64,000 nucleotides of DNA from Fibrobacterota bacterium (GCA_043753995.1 JAYUVP010000098.1:24841-88840), one strand, 5' to 3'. Shown: positions 11,126 through 19,473, counted from the first letter of the stretch. Numbers and translations: made by a program. The notes: generated by a model from the sequence alone, not told the origin.

Positions 11126-12154
11126 ATGAAAAAGCCCCCGCCCTTCGATCCCCAAACCCTGGCACTGACCGAATCCCTGTTAGATTCGGCTGGGGTCCAG
11201 GGGGATGCCTTTCAGCGTCAATGGATTGGAGAGATGATTCATTCCGTCCTGCAACTCGGCCTCGATGGGCCCGATTCGGGGGAAGTGAAGCTCATGGCCA
11301 GGAGCTTCCGAGAATTGCGACATGCTTTAAATGTCTTCCGGCCTTACAAGGGCCGTAAGAAAGTGTCCATATTCGGATCGGCGCGCACACCACCGGATCA
11401 TCCCGATTATCTCTGCGCGCGCGATTTCGCTGCGTCCATGGGAAGGCGGGGTTGGATGTCCATCACGGGGGCTGGCCCAGGCATCATGCAGGCGGGCAAT
11501 GAGGGGGCGGGGCCGGGGAATTCCTTCGGGCTGTCCATTCGGCTGCCTTGGGAGACCAATGGCAATCCCTTCATCGCCAAAGATTCCAAGTTCATGGTCT
11601 TCCGGTATTTCTTCACGCGGAAGCTTCTCTTCGCCTTGGGTGCCGATGCCATGGCAGTTTTCCCCGGGGGATTTGGCACGCTCGATGAATGCTTCGAGCT
11701 GCTGACCTTGATTCAAACCGGCAAATCCCCGCTCCTCCCAATCGTCTTGATTAGCCCGGAGGGAAATGATTATTGGAAGTCTTTCCGAACCTATATGGAA
11801 GACCACTTTGTCCGTAATGGCTGGATCAACCAGGAAGATTTGTTTTTGTTCCAGATCTTCTCTGACGTGGAAGCCGCATCCGATTATGTGGAACGATTCT
11901 ACCGGAATTACCACTCGTCCCGATTCGTTGGCGATCAATTCGTGATCCGCATGCAGAAAACCCTAAAACCGGAAGAACTTGAGTCCTTGAACGAGGCTCA
12001 TGCGGGGCTATGCGTCAAGGGCTATATCGACCAGGGAGTGGCCTTGAAAGGGGAAGAGGATTTCCTGGATTTGCCCCGCCTGGTTTTCCAATTCAACCGG
12101 AAGCATTATGGTGGGCTTCGGCTCATGATTGACCGGCTGAATCAGTTTGGCTGA
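11126..12154 (+). CDS. LOG family (TIGR00730) nucleotide phosphoribohydrolase-like protein
   Basis: VSIFGSART, ITGAGPGIMQAGNEGA, YFFTRK and FPGGFGTLDE motifs. Confidence 0.9.
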   Translation: MKKPPPFDPQTLALTESLLDSAGVQGDAFQRQWIGEMIHSVLQLGLDGPDSGEVKLMARSFRELRHALNVFRPYKGRKKVSIFGSARTPPDHPDYLCARDFAASMGRRGWMSITGAGPGIMQAGNEGAGPGNSFGLSIRLPWETNGNPFIAKDSKFMVFRYFFTRKLLFALGADAMAVFPGGFGTLDECFELLTLIQTGKSPLLPIVLISPEGNDYWKSFRTYMEDHFVRNGWINQEDLFLFQIFSDVEAASDYVERFYRNYHSSRFVGDQFVIRMQKTLKPEELESLNEAHAGLCVKGYIDQGVALKGEEDFLDLPRLVFQFNRKHYGGLRLMIDRLNQFG

Positions 12155-12185
12155 GAGGGTTTTGAAAGAGGCTGCGCTTGAATCT

Positions 12186-12995
12186 TTAATAGCCTAACTT
12201 TTTAAGGCGCGCTTTCACTTCGCGCGCGTTCCGATAGGGTGGCGCATGGATTTTTCTGAAGGGACTGGCCCAAAGTTCGGCATGCTCCTTTTCCGAAGCC
12301 TCATTGCACCCCACGGTATAGCCGAACCTTTGATTTAGCTTAGATAAAGGTTTCAGTGAATCGCCTTTTGCAGCGGTAAGATCGTCAAAAAAGTAGGTAT
12401 GGTAATAGGTGTCACACCCATTATTACCTCCATGGCTATTGATGGCTGTTCTGATCAAGATTCCTATTTCTTGTTTGGGGTCGCGGTCAGCGTTGGCAAA
12501 AACCACGGCTTGAATTTCGCCTTTCCCACCTGAGTCTCCAAAGGCTTCCATGGCAAAACGTCGGCACGCATTCGACCTTTGGTGGGTCGGAACGAAAACG
12601 TATCCATTGGTACGGCTCGAAATCTCTGGTTCTGGTGACAAGGAATACTTGATCCAAACCTTGGTGATCTTTTCATTGAAAAAACCGACAACAATAGGCG
12701 TGGAATTCCAAACAGTATCCATAGCCAGCATATACTCTGGCTTCCCATACCAAGTTGTATCGGGATCGGTTGGCTTGCTTTTCAAATGCAAAGGGTGGAT
12801 GACGGGGTCGATTGCATAGACGAAATCCGTATCCCTAATTCCATTGGCAGACGAGGGCTTGGCTTCGATAATACCGAGAAAAAAAGCCAAGATCATGGCT
12901 GTGACGTTGATGAGGTAGCCGTCTTTATAGCAAAGTCTTCCACGATCGGCCTTTTCATAAGCTATCCGATGAGAGAGAGGCCGGCTGGAGGGCAA
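12186..12995 (-). CDS. Hypothetical secreted protein (start uncertain)
   Basis: 269-aa ORF with a signal-like segment MILAFFLGIIEAKPSSA and a FANADRDPKQEI calcium-blade-like motif. Confidence 0.55.
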   Translation of the reverse strand: MPSSRPLSHRIAYEKADRGRLCYKDGYLINVTAMILAFFLGIIEAKPSSANGIRDTDFVYAIDPVIHPLHLKSKPTDPDTTWYGKPEYMLAMDTVWNSTPIVVGFFNEKITKVWIKYSLSPEPEISSRTNGYVFVPTHQRSNACRRFAMEAFGDSGGKGEIQAVVFANADRDPKQEIGILIRTAINSHGGNNGCDTYYHTYFFDDLTAAKGDSLKPLSKLNQRFGYTVGCNEASEKEHAELWASPFRKIHAPPYRNAREVKARLKKLGY

Positions 12996-13077
12996 ATACT
13001 TATTCGATATGCGGATGGATTATCGTCCTTTCGATGGCTGTTCTCCTGGCGAGTGGGTTGCCATGTTTATCTTCAGC

Positions 13078-14004
13078 CTATCCTGGTGCGTTTCCAGCCG
13101 GGTCCAAAGCTAATGCATTCCTAGGCACCGCCGCCGCAAAATGGGCCAATAGCCCGACTCCGAGCCCGCCTAAAACATCCACGGCATAGTGATACCCGCA
13201 ATATACAGTCGAAGCGATGAGCAGAATTCCCAAGGGCCAGAGCACTACTCTTTCCGGTTTGTGATGCCATGAAGCCAGCAAGGTGACCGTGGTCAAAGCC
13301 ACGTGGGCGCTGGGGAAATAGCCACCCGGAATTTCCCACTGGTATAACCAATGCATGATAGATGTGAAGGCATAACCCGGCATTTCGGTGGGGTGTTGTA
13401 AGGCACTGGCAGGCGTAAAATTTGCAAAGGAATGCGGGCCCAAGGCGGGAAGGAAGAGAAAAAGAAAATTGCAGATGTAAAAGGCGATGCCTATGGCAGC
13501 CATGAATCGATGAAATTCGGCGACGCGCTTTTTGCGGTAGTAAAGGACGAGAGCCAATCCAGCGAACTGGACGTAATAGGTGAAATACGCGAAGTGAAAA
13601 ATTTCGGAAACCCAGGCCTGTGGCCAAACTTGCGACCACAGCAAGGCAGGTTGAAATCCGAAAAGCATTTGATCGGCATTGCGAAGAATCATATCCCATT
13701 CGAAGGCAACCCAAAACCGGTTCAGGGTTCCTACCTGTTCGTAAATGGGTAAGAAAAAGAAAAACGGATAAAACAATCGGACAAAGCGTGAAATGGATTG
13801 CCCTCTACGCGAATGCTCGTCGTCACCCGAGGGAGATGCGAATCTGCAAATGACATAGGCGCAGCCAATGGCAAAGGCATTGAAAGCAAAAGGCGCAAGC
13901 GGTGCATCCATCGCCCAGGCCCGTACTCCGACGACTAGCAAGACCGCGAAGTGGTAACCGAAGAATAAGAGGTCGGCGGGAAAAACTCTGAACCCGGCTT
14001 TCAA
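13078..14004 (-). CDS. PAP2 superfamily membrane enzyme, Aur1/IPC-synthase-like (PAP2_3) type
   Basis: About 8 TM helices, D..LFGFQP, SEIFHFAYFTYY, FLFLPALGP, FPSAHV and STVYCGYHYAVDVLGG. TTG start is 3 nt after the upstream stop. Confidence 0.85.
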   Translation of the reverse strand: MKAGFRVFPADLLFFGYHFAVLLVVGVRAWAMDAPLAPFAFNAFAIGCAYVICRFASPSGDDEHSRRGQSISRFVRLFYPFFFFLPIYEQVGTLNRFWVAFEWDMILRNADQMLFGFQPALLWSQVWPQAWVSEIFHFAYFTYYVQFAGLALVLYYRKKRVAEFHRFMAAIGIAFYICNFLFLFLPALGPHSFANFTPASALQHPTEMPGYAFTSIMHWLYQWEIPGGYFPSAHVALTTVTLLASWHHKPERVVLWPLGILLIASTVYCGYHYAVDVLGGLGVGLLAHFAAAVPRNALALDPAGNAPG

Positions 14005-14007
14005 TTT

Positions 14008-15678
14008 TTACCCGCTCAGTCTCGACACGGAAAATGGCTCGGCATAGACTGGAGCGTCGGACAAAATGTTCAAGTTTGCTTGGGACTGAATTTCGAATTC
14101 GATTTGGAACCAAAGAGCTTGCAATGCTTCGAAGCGTACCTCGCCCATCATACAGATTTGCAACCAGTTGCGCTTGACGAGATAGTCTCCGGCATAATTG
14201 CAGAGCAAGCCGCATTTTTCCAAGCGGCGTCCCAAGCCGAGGGAGGAAATTGATTCGGGGAATTGCAAGGTGAATATTCCAGGTGCGCGGTTTTCGGTGG
14301 CTGCGATCAAAAGGATAGGCGATTCGACCATGCGTTCCATCAGCCACGCGCCCATTTCTTTGCGCCGGGAAAATAGTCTTGCTTTCGTGGTTTGCAATGC
14401 CGCCACAAGGGCTTCCAGAAACACAGAGGAGCCGCTGAAGGGAATGCCATCACAGTCGGCATAGTAACGCAATTCGAAATAGCGCGGCTTTGGCGCGGCG
14501 GACTTCATTAAGGCTTCGGGACGGTAAAAGACCATGGCCATGCCGGTCAAGGCGCCAATAGCCTTGCCGCTGACCGAGGAAGCCATGCGCGCGCGGCTAA
14601 AGTCGCAGGGGATGGCGCCAAGGGAACTGATAGCGTCCCAATGCGTATGCACGCCATGCCTATCGCAAAGCGATTGAATAGCCTCCAGCGGTTGCACTTG
14701 GCCCGTCGACGTTTCGCAGTGCACGGACCAAAGCCAGCGGATATTCGTATGCGTGCGCAGGGCCTTTTCCAAGGCGTCGAGCGAGGTGGCGTGCCCCCAG
14801 GGCGAACGCAGAATATGAGCATTCAGGTGATGAGCCTCGGCATGCTTGACTAGGCGTTCGCCGAATTCCCCATTACAGAGAATAATGCCTTCACCTCCGA
14901 GTTCGGCGATATGGGCGGCCACCACATCATTGGCCAGAGTCCCCGTGCCCAAGAAAATTTCAACTGCCTGGCCTTGGGTCATGGCCAGAAGCAGGCGCTT
15001 CGCTTTCTGCAATTGAGCAACATAACGTTCGGATCGATGGGAGTATGGGGGCACTTGCAAGGCTTGTCGAACAGGCTCTTGAACTTCAACGGGGCCAGGC
15101 AGGAAGTAATGCTGTGGCACTAATATGTCTGGAGCTTGTCGCAAGGTGTCGGGCAGGAGAGCTAAATGCCGATTGAGCGAATCGAGTGTCAAGGACATGG
15201 GTTGATACATGGCTCCAGGTATGCCGACTTGCGGGCCGAAAGCGAGAAAGCCCAACTTTTCATAAAGGGGAATATTTTCCAAACGGCCCGAGATGAGGCC
15301 TCGGTTGAAACCTTGAACGGTGCTATAAGCAAGGATTTCGTGCATGAGCAAGGCAAAGACGCGCCCATGCCGGCGACTGGGCTCTATCGCGAGGAGCCTG
15401 ATTTCACACAGCGAATCTCCTGGTTTCAAAAACACATCAAGGTTGTCGAGCTTGGAGTCCAGAGAAAAGGGCCGCTGATTGCGCAAGGCCACCATGCCTG
15501 CAATTTCGTCTCCGTCTTTGCAAATGAAATAGAGGTTTTCCCGGTGGAATTTATCGACAAGGCGCCGATCGGTATTGCGGGCATGCTGAGGAATTTCTTC
15601 GACAAAGGTGGCATAATTCAGTCGCGCGATGCGATCGAATTCATCCGCTTGATCGGCAATTTTCACAATCAGACTCAT
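14008..15678 (-). CDS. Fusion of GNAT N-acyltransferase (N-acyl amino acid synthase-like) and class V PLP aminotransferase; N-acyl-serinol synthase-like
   Basis: N-terminal ~170 aa carry LNYATFVEE..RPFSLD..LCEIRLLAI..LYEKLGF. The C-terminus carries FLPGPV, SHRS, GTGT, NGEFGER, VHCETSTG, DAISS and SGKA (PLP Lys). Confidence 0.85.
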   Translation of the reverse strand: MSLIVKIADQADEFDRIARLNYATFVEEIPQHARNTDRRLVDKFHRENLYFICKDGDEIAGMVALRNQRPFSLDSKLDNLDVFLKPGDSLCEIRLLAIEPSRRHGRVFALLMHEILAYSTVQGFNRGLISGRLENIPLYEKLGFLAFGPQVGIPGAMYQPMSLTLDSLNRHLALLPDTLRQAPDILVPQHYFLPGPVEVQEPVRQALQVPPYSHRSERYVAQLQKAKRLLLAMTQGQAVEIFLGTGTLANDVVAAHIAELGGEGIILCNGEFGERLVKHAEAHHLNAHILRSPWGHATSLDALEKALRTHTNIRWLWSVHCETSTGQVQPLEAIQSLCDRHGVHTHWDAISSLGAIPCDFSRARMASSVSGKAIGALTGMAMVFYRPEALMKSAAPKPRYFELRYYADCDGIPFSGSSVFLEALVAALQTTKARLFSRRKEMGAWLMERMVESPILLIAATENRAPGIFTLQFPESISSLGLGRRLEKCGLLCNYAGDYLVKRNWLQICMMGEVRFEALQALWFQIEFEIQSQANLNILSDAPVYAEPFSVSRLSG

Positions 15679-16208
15679 AGGCGTGACTCCGGGTCCGAGA
15701 CGTTTTTTTCAGAGGGATTGGATTGCCAAGTCAGTCGGTTCTTCGCCAAATGCGATCGGTGAGCGAAAAGGACGAGGGCCAGGGTGGCGAGGCACGCGCC
15801 GATGACCGAAAGTGCATGGCCGCTGAAATGAATCCGCGGACTATAGATGGCCAAGGCAAGGGCTCCGCCCGCGGCAACCGACACACCTTTGCCACCGCGA
15901 AAACCCATTTGAACCGGGTAAATATGCCCGATGACAAGGCATGGCAAAGACCAAAAGACATGGGCCGAATGCGGAACTAAGGCCAAACCAAAAGCGATAC
16001 CCGCCCAAGCCTTAAGGAAGTCGCCAGCAAAGGTGACAGTAAAGCCGGATGGCCCTAAGAGTCGCCCGACATTGCGCGCGCCTGTCGATCCGCTACCGAA
16101 TTCACGTATGTCTTGGCGACGCGTGAGGCGCACCCAGTAATAGCCCGTATTGAAGCAGCCTAAGGCATAGGCGGCAAGCCAGGCGAGGGCATGCAGGGTT
16201 TCGCTCAT
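15675..16208 (-). CDS. plsY: PlsY-family acyltransferase paralog
   Basis: DIREFGSGSTGARNVGR, GDFLKA, GHIYPV..GFRGGKGV and a degenerate AHRSHL third motif. ATGA overlaps at both ends. Confidence 0.85.
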   Translation of the reverse strand: MSETLHALAWLAAYALGCFNTGYYWVRLTRRQDIREFGSGSTGARNVGRLLGPSGFTVTFAGDFLKAWAGIAFGLALVPHSAHVFWSLPCLVIGHIYPVQMGFRGGKGVSVAAGGALALAIYSPRIHFSGHALSVIGACLATLALVLFAHRSHLAKNRLTWQSNPSEKNVSDPESRL

Positions 16209-16747
16209 GGGGAATGGAAGGAGTAAACTTCGCCCCACACCGGCCTCACCGGGACATGCCCCACATAACCGCGGCGGATCAAGCGCTGTTGGAGGTATTG
16301 CATGAGGAAGCCATGGGTCACGAGAAGGATGTTTTGCGAAGTATGCATTTCCTCTAATTCGTCCAGCAAGGCGTCAAGGCGCTGAAAAGTCTGCTCACGA
16401 TTTTCGGTTTGTGAAGGGTGGGGAAGACGCCAACCGAGGCGACTCAAGGCTTGCCAAGCCAATAGAGGCAAGGGTATTTCGGTTTTGAAAAGGGGTGCAA
16501 AAGGCACTTCGCGCAAGGACTCGTGGACCGCGATGTCGCCGTGGAACAATGCCTGGGCCGTCTTGTGCGCCCGCGGCAAATCACTGCTATAACAGATGTC
16601 CCAGCCTTTGAGCGGTTTTAAAACCAAGGGTATTGCGACATCAAAGCGATCATACCATTGCGACCAATCGACAAAGCCCCGGCTATTCATCCATTGGTAT
16701 TGGGGGTGCGGTATGCGGAAATGGCGCATCAAGCCTAGGGTATTCAT
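16205..16747 (-). CDS. Histidine phosphatase (phosphoglycerate mutase-like) family protein
   Basis: LMRHF, CYSSDLPRAHKTA, LREV and LLVTHGF motifs. Start placed at ATG 16747. Confidence 0.85.
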   Translation of the reverse strand: MNTLGLMRHFRIPHPQYQWMNSRGFVDWSQWYDRFDVAIPLVLKPLKGWDICYSSDLPRAHKTAQALFHGDIAVHESLREVPFAPLFKTEIPLPLLAWQALSRLGWRLPHPSQTENREQTFQRLDALLDELEEMHTSQNILLVTHGFLMQYLQQRLIRRGYVGHVPVRPVWGEVYSFHSP

Positions 16748-16822
16748 AAGATTCGGAATATAGGACGCATCCAAGTCGGTAGGTGTTCCCAAACCCTCCA
16801 CACCTTATCGGTGGCGATCGAA

Positions 16823-17139
16823 TTACTTCATTTCTCGAAGAAATTTGAGCGCTGCCCCATGTTGGCTTAGAATATCCCCGCTGATATAAACCGAAATGGC
16901 CGCCTTGCGCGGAGGGAAACCAATCCGAAGCCAGTCCACGTCCCTCCCCGAAGTCGGGCTCTTAAGTTTGACTAGGCCAAAACCAATGAGGGAGGTACCC
17001 CACATTCTCGGTTCTTCCATGCTGGCCTTCTTCATCATTTCTAAAAGCGCAAAACTATCCTAGCGCTGTTGCACGCCTTTTACGCAATGAGAAATTTCTC
17101 AACGCTGGCGCCATTCGGCTTGGTTTTGTTTTCGGCCAT
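16823..17139 (-). pseudogene. DUF1801 (YdhG-like) pseudogene
   Basis: MAENKTKPNGASVEKFL is followed by a frameshift and an in-frame TAG. It then reads MMKKAS..WGTSLIGFG..SGRDVDWLRIGFPPRKAAISVY and is truncated. Confidence 0.7.
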
Positions 17140-17310
17140 CGAATTCTCCTAAACGATCCATTTGACCAAGGTAAAAAATCATGGTGGCAGCCTTAGGGTA
17201 ATACCCCATTTCAGCGGCCCCGAAGTGAAGCGACCTTAGTTTCCGTATTCGCCCTTGTTTCGGAACCTGAATTCGCAGGTGCAATCCAGGAAGGGAAATA
17301 GGTTCCAATT

Positions 17311-19473
17311 ATGCAAACCGAAACCTTGATCGCATCCGTAGAGACAGTCAACTCCAAAAAAATTTCCGTCGGCAATCCGGATATTCTCGGTGCTCGGATT
17401 ACGGAAACAGGCGTCAATTTCGCGATTGCCTCCCGCAATGCCACCGAAGTTTTTCTTGTCTTATTCGATGAAGCCGGAGGATCCCCCACCGATACTATCC
17501 CCATGCAGGGAAGGACGAACGATGTTTGGCATATGCATATCGAAGGCCTAGTGCAGGGGCAAATGTATGCCTATCGCGTCAATGGTCCCTATGATCCAGA
17601 CAATGGTTTTCGCTTCAATCCTTACAAATTGCTGATCGATCCTTATGCCAAAGCCTTTACAGGGAAATTCAACAATCCGGACAACCTTCTGCTCGCCTAT
17701 GACAGCAATTCGGAGCAGAAGGATTTGGTGATGGATACGCGCGATAATGCTGCCGTGGTTCCGGAATGCATTGTCTGGGACGATGCCTTCGACTGGGAAG
17801 GCGTCGAAAAGCCCGGCATCCCTCAAGAGAAGCTGGTGATCTATGAAGTGCATGTCAAGGGTTTCACGGCCCACCCCTCTTCCAAGGTGAAGCACCCCGG
17901 AACTTATTTGGGATTCATCGAAAAAATCCCTTACTTGAAAGAGCTCGGCATTAACGCGGTAGAACTGCTCCCCATCCATGAATTCGTATGCGAGGATTTT
18001 CTCAAGGAAAAAGGGCTTTCGAACTATTGGGGGTATAACACTATCGGATTTTTTGCGCCTGAATCCTCCTATTCCACCCAGAAAACTTCAGGCTGTGCCA
18101 TCAATGAATTCAAGACCTTGGTCAAGGAACTGCATAAAGCGGGAATCGAAGTCATTCTCGATGTCGTCTACAATCATAGTGCCGAAGGCAATGAATGCGG
18201 ACCGACGCTCTCCTTCAAGGGGATAGACAATACGGAATATTACTCGCTATGCGGTGACGAGAACGCTCCCAAGCGCTATTACAGAAATTTTTCGGGTACC
18301 GGAAATACATTGAATGCTAGCAGTCCGATCTTTAGTCGCTTAACCTTGGATTCACTTCATTACTGGGCTGAGGTCATGCAAGTGGATGGCTTTCGCTTTG
18401 ATTTAGCGGCCTCCCTGGGGCGCGACCACAACGGTACTTTTTTGGCTGATGGGCATTTGCTTGGGCAGATTACCAATGACCCGGTGCTTAATAAACTGAA
18501 ACTAATTGCTGAGCCTTGGGACATGGAAGCCTATGAAGTCGGTAGCTTGCCTTTGGGCTGGTCGGAATGGAATGGGAAATTCCGTGACAATTTCCGCAAA
18601 TTCGCCAAAGGGGATGCTGGACAAGTGCAAAAAATCAGCACCCACATCGCCGGATCCCCGGATCTGTTCGCGCACAATGGCCGTAGTGCCAGCGACAGCA
18701 TCAACTTTCTCACCTGCCATGACGGTTTCACCTTGTACGATCTGGTTTCATTCAATGAAAAGCATAATGAGGCGAATCTCGAAAACAACAAAGATGGCGC
18801 AAATGACAATCACTCTTGGAATCATGGCGCGGAAGGAGAGACGGAGGACCAGGAGATCATGGATCTTCGCAAGCGGCAGGTGAAAAATCTTTTTTGCTAC
18901 CAGATGTTCTCAATCGGAACACCCATGATTTCCGCTGGGGACGAATTCATGCGCACACAAAACGGCAACAATAATGTTTATACACAGGACAATGCGCTTT
19001 CCTGGTTGGATTGGGATCGACGAGCCGAGAATGAAGATATGGTCTCCTTCGTGCGGAACTTGCTCGGGTTCCGGAATCGGCATGCGATACTGCAAAGGCC
19101 CCGCTTCTTTCTGGGGAATGACAAGTCAGGCGATGGCATTCCCGACATTCATTGGATAGGCCCGGACAGCGACGCTGTCGATTGGGAGAATGGGGAATTG
19201 CGATGCCTGGGATTCCAAGTGGACGGCAGAGAATCCGAAAATGTCGGCGCTGCGGAATGGGATTACCGCCTATTCATCGTATTCAATGCGGAGACAGACT
19301 CGCGCATCTTCCTGCTGCCCCCATTGGAAAACGAAAAGACCTGGCATAGGGTCATCGACACCGTCCTTGCCCCGGGCGAAGACTTCATGGAGCAAGGTCA
19401 GGAAGTCCCCATCAAGGATTCATGCTACCAGGTAAGCGGGAGAAGCTGTGTCGTTTTGAAATCTATTTCTTGA
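17311..19473 (+). CDS. glgX: Glycogen debranching enzyme (GH13 isoamylase type)
   Basis: IYEVHVKGFT, NYWGYNTIGFFAPE, ILDVVYNHSAEG, DGFRFDLA, IAEPWD and TCHDGFTL motifs. Confidence 0.95.
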   Translation: MQTETLIASVETVNSKKISVGNPDILGARITETGVNFAIASRNATEVFLVLFDEAGGSPTDTIPMQGRTNDVWHMHIEGLVQGQMYAYRVNGPYDPDNGFRFNPYKLLIDPYAKAFTGKFNNPDNLLLAYDSNSEQKDLVMDTRDNAAVVPECIVWDDAFDWEGVEKPGIPQEKLVIYEVHVKGFTAHPSSKVKHPGTYLGFIEKIPYLKELGINAVELLPIHEFVCEDFLKEKGLSNYWGYNTIGFFAPESSYSTQKTSGCAINEFKTLVKELHKAGIEVILDVVYNHSAEGNECGPTLSFKGIDNTEYYSLCGDENAPKRYYRNFSGTGNTLNASSPIFSRLTLDSLHYWAEVMQVDGFRFDLAASLGRDHNGTFLADGHLLGQITNDPVLNKLKLIAEPWDMEAYEVGSLPLGWSEWNGKFRDNFRKFAKGDAGQVQKISTHIAGSPDLFAHNGRSASDSINFLTCHDGFTLYDLVSFNEKHNEANLENNKDGANDNHSWNHGAEGETEDQEIMDLRKRQVKNLFCYQMFSIGTPMISAGDEFMRTQNGNNNVYTQDNALSWLDWDRRAENEDMVSFVRNLLGFRNRHAILQRPRFFLGNDKSGDGIPDIHWIGPDSDAVDWENGELRCLGFQVDGRESENVGAAEWDYRLFIVFNAETDSRIFLLPPLENEKTWHRVIDTVLAPGEDFMEQGQEVPIKDSCYQVSGRSCVVLKSIS

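Follow-up and report, generated by a model that had tools for sequence, protein, structure and literature searches.

What would a bacterium make with an extra copy of PlsY (an acyltransferase for glycerol-3-phosphate, G3P) whose gene is tightly coupled to one for an N-acyl synthase fused to an aminotransferase? This question is raised by four genes at positions 13078-16747 of a 64,000-nucleotide stretch from a Fibrobacterota bacterium (GCA_043753995.1, JAYUVP010000098.1:24841-88840; the whole stretch is referred to here as the window). The first-pass annotation of this DNA had proposed an operon for a serinol-backbone phospholipid. Our analysis upheld several components of that proposal, namely an additional PlsY, a lipid module built around an N-acyl synthase-aminotransferase and a PAP2 protein of the ceramide type, but not the four genes as a conserved unit. 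What recurs across many phyla is a two-gene core, the PlsY paralog and the fusion, and no function has been described for this pair. We consider the chances to be about even that the product of the module, which consists of a specialised PlsY and a FeeM-GNAT/class-V aminotransferase, is a diacylated lipid with serinol-phosphate as its backbone.

The four co-directional genes were present on the minus strand in the order that had been described, and Pfam agreed on their domains:

16205-16747, minus strand: His-phosphatase (His_Phos_1) gene; 180 aa from the ATG at 16747; open reading frame (ORF) 16205-16801
15675-16208, minus strand: PlsY-family paralog gene; 177 aa from the ATG at 16208; ORF 15675-16238
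14008-15678, minus strand: GNAT-aminotransferase fusion gene, whole; 556 aa
15184-15630, minus strand: FeeM/GNAT N-acyl synthase domain, N-terminal in the fusion; residues ~17-165
14113-15102, minus strand: class-V aminotransferase domain, C-terminal in the fusion; residues ~193-522, including the invariant SGK372 motif
13078-14004, minus strand: PAP2_3 membrane protein gene; 308 aa, TTG start

The close spacing of these genes was also read directly in the sequence, as had been claimed. The phosphatase stop and the plsY-paralog start overlap in an ATGA (16208-16205), the paralog stop and the fusion start overlap in another (15678-15675), and a 3-nt spacer (14007-14005) separates the TAA of the fusion (14010-14008) from the TTG of the PAP2 gene (14004), a start that is supported because PAP2 homologues align from that N-terminus. 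None of the four proteins scored above an equivalog cut-off in NCBIfam. We regard the arrangement as going beyond chance because the central pair is conserved elsewhere, as described below, and not on the basis of the overlaps.

Homologues of the fusion were found to be numerous: at least 3981 proteins matched at E <= 0.001 among 8000 candidates scored, and a relative was encoded in at least 582 of 600 genome stretches scanned. Gene neighbourhoods were counted in the best 80 of these (at least 582) loci, which belonged to Verrucomicrobiota, Planctomycetota, Dehalococcoidia, Desulfuromonadales/Geobacteraceae, Acidobacteriota, Gemmatimonadota, NC10, Bacillales, Desulfosporosinus and others. Cultured carriers of the fusion include Virgibacillus spp., Cytobacillus firmus DS1, Pseudalkalibacillus decolorationis DSM 14890, Planococcus spp., Desulfosporosinus lacus DSM 15449 and Limisphaera sp. 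In 61 of the 80 loci, or about three-quarters of those examined, tblastn placed a PlsY paralog immediately 5' of the fusion and in the same orientation; among the 75 loci whose upstream sequence reached at least 700 bp, an adjacent paralog was present in 59. When all ORFs within 5 kb were clustered, the paralog was on the same strand in all 61 cases (median offset, -18 bp) and was the only neighbour family present in more than 12 loci; the other large clusters were ORFs overlapping the fusion gene. By contrast, tblastn searches with the outer genes of the window found the phosphatase in only one of the 80 loci (L027) and gave a single weak match to the PAP2 gene, ~7 kb distant. Thus, the partners that had been expected to recur with the fusion were reduced to one, the plsY paralog, with the phosphatase (1/80) and PAP2 (rare) dropping out, and the idea of four genes conserved together had to be abandoned in favor of a pair conserved across phyla.

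Other lineages have their own accessory genes beside the fusion, and every recurrent one was a membrane-lipid enzyme. In Bacillales, a paralog of the lipoteichoic acid (LTA) synthase family was located directly 3' of the fusion in all 10 loci; the copy in L037 (9601-11457) encodes ~618 aa and scored 714 bits on NF053595, below the cut-off of 970, and the same position was occupied in L047, L050, L053, L059, L061, L062, L064, L069 and L081. Two Planococcus loci that had no adjacent PlsY paralog still had the LTA-synthase paralog 3' of the fusion. In six loci, an acyl-ACP-phospholipid O-acyltransferase/LplT gene was found 5'; at L020 (3969-7379) and five similar loci this was an MFS(LplT)-acyltransferase-AMP-binding protein, above the model cut-off and directly 5' of the PlsY paralog. 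A lysolipid re-acylation system may serve the same lipid as the module.

The paired gene is an addition to the housekeeping PlsY. The genome that contains the window (5.2 Mb, 356 contigs, 97.3% complete) has a second, full-length PlsY on another contig, which scored 177 bits compared with 92 bits for the window copy and carries the canonical GSGN..TN, GGK and HR.N motifs; the separate housekeeping plsY for which the first-pass annotation had asked to check is therefore present. All five other carrier genomes searched also hold a higher-scoring canonical PlsY, and PlsX, the source of acyl-phosphate, is present once in the window genome. The window paralog itself matched Pfam PF02660 (G3P_acyltransf) with 92.8 bits (cut-off 24.1), over profile positions 2-117 of 164 only, and fell below both PlsY equivalog cut-offs (NF001254, 72.2 versus 199 bits; TIGR00023, 67 versus 137.2). 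In a quick IQ-TREE phylogeny, 64 fusion-adjacent paralogs were placed on one side of a branch and 14 other PlsY-family rows on the opposite side, with a Shimodaira-Hasegawa approximate likelihood-ratio test (SH-aLRT) support of 93, and the window paralog fell within the clade of fusion-adjacent paralogs.

The substrate pocket of this subfamily offers a clue to its acceptor. In aaPlsY, Ser35, Arg45, Lys104 and Asn180 are reported to clamp the phosphate and Ser142 and His177 to bind the 2-hydroxyl, and the N180H substitution almost abolishes activity on G3P (PMC5700162). We mapped these positions in 65 paralogs by using HMMER alignments to the solved aaPlsY chain and a MAFFT alignment. The phosphate clamp was largely kept (S35 in 63, R45 in 63, K104 in 62 and N180 in 51 of the 65), and H177 was present in all 65. 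The position of Ser142 was occupied by Gly in 56 and by Ala in four paralogs, and Ser was found in none of them (0/65), whereas all seven canonical copies have Ser. In addition, the position of Thr41 was Arg or Lys in 47 of the 65. Since the clamp is kept and Ser142 is lost, the subfamily would still clamp a phosphate and no longer read the 2-hydroxyl; the change from Ser to Gly would also free space at this point. This residue pattern fits an acceptor that differs from G3P at C2. It should be noted that PlsY paralogy is wider than this subfamily: G045, the Dehalococcoidia genome of locus L022, has five PlsY-family genes (loci L101, L106, L108, L110 and L111), and most residues of the G3P pocket are gone from those at L108 and L110, with H177 changed to Lys in one and to Ser in the other.

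The fusion protein combines two domains whose predicted activities would be needed for such an acceptor. Its N-terminal domain matched FeeM (PF21926, 41.1 bits, cut-off 27) and Acetyltransf_5 (PF13444, 31.7 bits, cut-off 22.4), and its C-terminal domain matched Aminotran_5 in Pfam (37.3 bits). The lysine K372 of the SGK motif was invariant across 18 homologues and is presumably the pyridoxal-phosphate lysine, as we judge from the fold-type-I pattern. The closest solved structures of the aminotransferase domain were AGXT, serine-pyruvate and 2-aminoethylphosphonate (AEP) transaminases, and a search for solved structures found no relative of the GNAT half. One chain in the Protein Data Bank, 9os7_A (555 residues, named methionine--tRNA ligase), matched the aminotransferase domain over its residues 199-408 and resembles the fusion in length and domain position. 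The closest homologues overall were P0002 (80% identity) and P0003 (72%), the closest named ones came from Fibrobacterota metagenome-assembled genomes (47-49%), and among 40 relatives of the window genome a strong match was found in three (G015, G021 and G028).

Building on what was directly observed, namely the gene order, the protein families, the paralogy, the conserved pairing, the pattern of pocket residues and the genes that surround the PAP2_3 subfamily (see below), we infer all substrates and products of the module as follows. The aminotransferase domain would convert dihydroxyacetone phosphate (DHAP) into serinol-3-phosphate, which is G3P with an amino group replacing the 2-hydroxyl. 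The GNAT domain would N-acylate the amine, and the PlsY paralog would O-acylate the free hydroxyl, drawing on acyl-phosphate from PlsX. The two acylations could occur in either order, and the product would be 1-O-acyl-2-N-acyl-serinol-3-phosphate, an amide analogue of phosphatidic acid. Serinol-3-phosphate is proposed because the substrate must have a carbonyl precursor, an amine, a hydroxyl and a phosphate, as well as a C2 unlike that of G3P. There is precedent for the components: transamination of DHAP to serinol-phosphate has been reported for RtxA (PMC3222319), serinol-phosphate is used by capsule enzymes of Campylobacter jejuni and is a real bacterial metabolite (PMC13276843), and a single nas gene from Gemella is reported to yield N-oleoyl serinol in Escherichia coli (PMC13012048). 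In the window organism, the soluble phosphatase probably dephosphorylates serinol-phosphate or an acylated intermediate, and the PAP2_3 protein probably acts on the ceramide-like N,O-diacylserinol, either attaching a phospho-headgroup or taking one off.

The last gene of the operon provided the strongest support for the idea of a ceramide mimic, through the company that its relatives keep. The protein scored 70.7 bits on PF14378 (cut-off 27), the Aur1/sphingomyelin-synthase-like branch of PAP2; its motifs PS232xH234 and H272-Y-A-V-D276 were invariant in 14 homologues, inspection of the translation by eye showed no K-x6-R-P motif, and the closest homologue noted was P0168 (63% identity). P0168 and the fusion homologue P0003 both have a longest contig of 15598 bp, which may hint that they share it. 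A metagenome scan with 14 aligned homologues yielded 80 further PAP2_3 loci (L134-L213). In 50 of these, a gene of the short-chain dehydrogenase/reductase (SDR)/epimerase family lay directly 5' on the same strand; an Aminotran_1_2 gene, whose best NCBIfam model was serine palmitoyltransferase (Spt; 614 bits, cut-off 640), was found nearby in 35, and 37 encoded a protein of 374 aa that matched GNAT weakly. At least one of the Spt-like, GNAT-like and SDR genes accompanied PAP2_3 in 63 loci and all three in 21, both of which are lower bounds because many contigs are short. The typical order was Spt-like, GNAT-like, SDR and PAP2_3 (for example, L176 2170-6729, L212 2683-6873 and L165 2327-6672). 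The published core of bacterial ceramide synthesis consists of Spt together with the acyltransferase bCerS and the reductase CerR (PMC11087976). The context therefore suggests that the PAP2_3 subfamily of the window normally ends sphingolipid operons. As a separate observation, these operons seem to have in PAP2_3 a fourth gene that has not been described, perhaps responsible for a phospho-headgroup step; in the open full-text literature we found nothing linking PAP2 to bacterial Spt clusters, although supplements of sphingolipid papers might list PAP2_3.

The window genome appeared to have no ceramide pathway of its own. The best score for Spt was 207.8 bits on NF047600 (cut-off 640) in this 97.3%-complete genome, and the GNAT-like neighbour used as a query found nothing there, so that the SPT-independent context assumed earlier agreed with our data. 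A PAP2_3 protein of the ceramide type is therefore likely to be wired to the serinol module in a genome where no ceramide pathway could be detected. The earlier suggestion of a ceramide-like acceptor thus gained support from the Spt-type operons in which the subfamily occurs elsewhere, and this context is also what would favor transfer of a phospho-headgroup to such an acceptor over hydrolysis by the window protein. PAP2 genes near a fusion were found at only three places in the 80 fusion loci and the relatives examined: in the window, in L097 (from G028), where a 240-aa PAP2_3 gene abuts the fusion, and in L050, where an HMM (hidden Markov model) of 69 PAP2 homologues located a gene ~2 kb 3' of the fusion. 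With the window PAP2_3 as query, the 40 relatives gave only weak matches (E >= 1e-4, in three of them), and no orthology could be detected between the L097 and window proteins (E 0.038), which implies either a very old divergence or independent recruitment.

The first gene of the operon belongs to branch 1 of the histidine phosphatase superfamily (PF00300, His_Phos_1; 50.9 bits, cut-off 21.7), and R8-H9 (in RHF), R59, E80 and H145-G146 were invariant in six orthologues; we take these to be the catalytic Arg-His ... Arg ... Glu ... His-Gly motif of the family. The order phosphatase, PlsY paralog, fusion was kept in G015, G021, G028 and L027, at 42-50% identity, and only in this lineage does the phosphatase go with the module. 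An orthologue of the phosphatase was found in 10 of the 40 relatives. In some relatives, it precedes unrelated genes. A convergent AP_endonuc_2 gene directly follows the phosphatase in L120, and a gene of this kind comes after the fusion in L095. Further neighbours were noted on the other side of the orthologue, which lies just 3' of an MMPL-family transporter gene in L118, L119 and L120 and just 3' of a gene for an ~870-aa radical-SAM protein (Radical_SAM_N2 and Radical_SAM) in L095, L096 and L124; these neighbours occurred independently of the presence of the PlsY-fusion module.

Several observations weigh against the serinol-phosphate pathway, and they are considered here together with the explanations that they favor. 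First, the families nearest to the aminotransferase domain varied and all fell below equivalog cut-offs, so that its substrate cannot be read from the sequence; the best NCBIfam match, for instance, was PhnW-AepZ (TIGR03301), with 134 bits versus a cut-off of 360.8. The same logic might hence apply to a different backbone, in which another phosphorylated carbonyl compound (for instance, glyceraldehyde-3-phosphate or a different sugar phosphate of the keto or aldo type) is aminated and then acylated. The substrates of the nearest solved relatives vary, and the pocket residues of the PlsY subfamily say only that a phosphate is kept and that there is a difference at the position of the 2-hydroxyl of G3P. 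However, no simple compound other than serinol-phosphate combines a C2 amine, a free primary hydroxyl and a phosphate in the geometry read by PlsY, and both the precedent of DHAP transamination and the N-acyl serinol made by the nas gene in E. coli point to it. We therefore regard a different backbone as unlikely, though it is the best of the alternatives.

Second, the fusion may have a simpler role. Of the 75 loci with sufficient flanking sequence, 16 had no PlsY paralog next to the fusion gene, and, of five genomes without a paralog beside the fusion, three had one PlsY-family gene, one had none and one had two divergent extra copies elsewhere; in some genomes, the fusion therefore appears to work with no PlsY dedicated to it. 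The hm-NAS of Gemella haemolysans, attributed to Cohen et al. 2017 (Nature 549:48) and compared here by description only, is likewise said to be an N-acyl synthase fused to an aminotransferase. The outer genes are also loosely attached. The window PAP2_3 was only 31-38% identical to its homologues in the sphingolipid clusters, and neither the fusion nor the phosphatase was found in any of the 80 metagenome PAP2_3 loci. In six of nine relatives examined, the 3.5-kb locus around the phosphatase contained neither a PlsY paralog nor a fusion; from this retention without the module and the AP_endonuc_2 pattern, it follows that the two-gene module is the unit gained or lost, whereas the phosphatase is a resident of the lineage. 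Its role in the pathway is accordingly plausible but not required.

These data would suit a fusion that makes only single-chain N-acyl serinol or its phosphate, with PlsY as an auxiliary G3P acyltransferase and the phosphatase and PAP2_3 as unrelated neighbours, especially as one nas gene is enough for N-oleoyl serinol in E. coli. On the other hand, this explanation would not account for the tight same-strand adjacency of the pair in most loci across phyla, for the separate branch formed by the paralogs or for the complete absence from them of the serine that binds the 2-hydroxyl. Moreover, the window paralog carries the change corresponding to N180H, which leaves aaPlsY with nearly no G3P activity, and every one of the five carriers checked already has a canonical PlsY. 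A single-chain product seems rather improbable to us. As for hm-NAS, the two share an N-acyl synthase of the FeeM/PF13444 type, but the product of hm-NAS is reported as a single-chain signalling amide from one gene, and pairing of our fusion with a dedicated PlsY implies a second, ester-linked chain.

Third, the PlsY paralog of the window is shortened and its clamp is altered. Approximately 33 residues are missing, including a helix and the position of Ser142, and S35, R45 and K104 are kept while N180 is replaced by His. The protein may use another, perhaps unphosphorylated, acceptor, or may be impaired. If it were inactive, the module would be decaying in this genome and would yield at most N-acyl serinol or its phosphate, to be processed by PAP2_3 and the phosphatase; the truncated Pfam match would agree with such a loss. 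However, the short form was intact over its full length in five distinct sequences (65-100% identity), four of them metagenome homologues (65-81% identity) with the same deletion and a conserved C-terminal motif, and its gene is translationally coupled on both sides. An AlphaFold2 model based on 44 sequences had a predicted local distance difference test (pLDDT) score of 90.8 and a predicted TM-score (pTM) of 0.83, and matched only PlsY structures (TM-score 0.73, probability 1.0). Because the four homologues share the deletion and motif and the model has the PlsY fold, the short form is not an assembly accident. Decay therefore appears the least likely of the three alternatives, and the short PlsY reads as a functional enzyme that is not a G3P acyltransferase. 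We speculate that the altered clamp reflects an acceptor that may already be dephosphorylated.

Finally, two other products were rejected: a phosphonolipid based on AEP, since the PhnW-AepZ match was far below its cut-off, AEP has no hydroxyl for PlsY and a search of the 97.3%-complete genome found no phosphoenolpyruvate mutase (TIGR02320), and one based on phosphoserine from a SerC-like reaction, which was dismissed on logic only as it has no free hydroxyl for O-acylation.

The proposed serinol-phosphate pathway can be compared with known systems. With PlsX/PlsY/PlsC (aaPlsY structures 5XJ5-5XJ9) it shares the PlsY fold and family, the acyl-phosphate loop, the residues S35, R45, K104 and H177 and the presence of PlsX. 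One difference lies in the second chain, which is added there by PlsC and would be added here by the GNAT domain onto an amine. N-acylation by the GNAT domain would take the role that PlsC plays at sn-2. Ornithine lipid synthesis by OlsB and OlsA follows the same two-step logic, a GNAT-like N-acylation and then O-acylation by a second acyltransferase, but uses other O-acylation families and an amino-acid backbone with no phosphate. The spt-bcerS-cerR system resembles the module in the expected product, a two-chain lipid with one amide-linked acyl group, and in the position of the PAP2_3 subfamily, last in the Spt/GNAT-like/SDR clusters. In contrast, the backbone in the window organism would come from transamination of DHAP and not from the condensation of serine with acyl-CoA, and its second chain would be ester-linked instead of belonging to a long-chain base. 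RtxA of Bradyrhizobium elkanii and the C. jejuni capsule enzymes, compared by reaction, likewise convert DHAP into serinol-phosphate, followed by a phosphatase step, but they feed rhizobitoxine synthesis or capsule amidation and not lipids.

The surroundings of the operon were also inspected. A scan of positions 12000-17400 for promoters and terminators gave four promoter-like and six terminator-like sites, no excess over the means of shuffled sequences (4.0 and 7.3, respectively). Two short minus-strand ORFs at 16826-17160, between the operon and a divergent glgX-like gene (17311-19473), may be remnants of a broken gene, and the 73-aa ORF among them had no Pfam match. A 269-aa ORF on the same (minus) strand at 12186-12995, 82 bp 3' of the PAP2 gene, matched no Pfam family. 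For positions 13000-16900, no RNA data set was listed; the two DNA data sets listed were sediment metagenomes and may represent the source sample.

In the open full-text literature, subscription papers and supplements lying outside it, we found no paper combining PlsY with serinol, the sole co-occurrence being the word 'serinolysis', and none on diacylserinol phospholipids or an acylserinol membrane lipid; the chemical report of such phospholipids from a bacterium, to which the first-pass annotation alluded, was among the things looked for there and not found. Serinol lipids would differ from glycerolipids by ~0.984 Da and be near-isobaric with them; therefore, routine lipidomics could have missed them. 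If the serinol-backbone pathway is correct, many bacteria, including cultured Bacillales, Desulfosporosinus, Verrucomicrobiota, Planctomycetota and Dehalococcoidia, would make a phospholipid with an amide bond holding the chain that is equivalent to sn-2. Such lipids should resist attack of the phospholipase A2 type and form ceramide-like hydrogen bonds. The N-acyl serinols that act on hosts would then be parts of a membrane-lipid pathway, and those of gut bacteria, known as 'GPCR (G-protein-coupled receptor) ligands', would represent a single-gene shunt or breakdown products.

The large PlsY subfamily described here would also gain its first function. Different lineages would plug the same backbone into different headgroup enzymes, PAP2_3 in the window organism and an LTA-synthase (LtaS) paralog in Bacillales, and the sphingolipid and serinol-lipid routes would have been swapped at the operon level before the same type of headgroup enzyme. 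More broadly, and more tentatively than the pathway itself, we suggest that serinol could be a third backbone of two-chain membrane lipids in bacteria, beside glycerol and the sphingoid bases, supplied by a multi-phylum module that makes an amide analogue of phosphatidic acid directly from DHAP.

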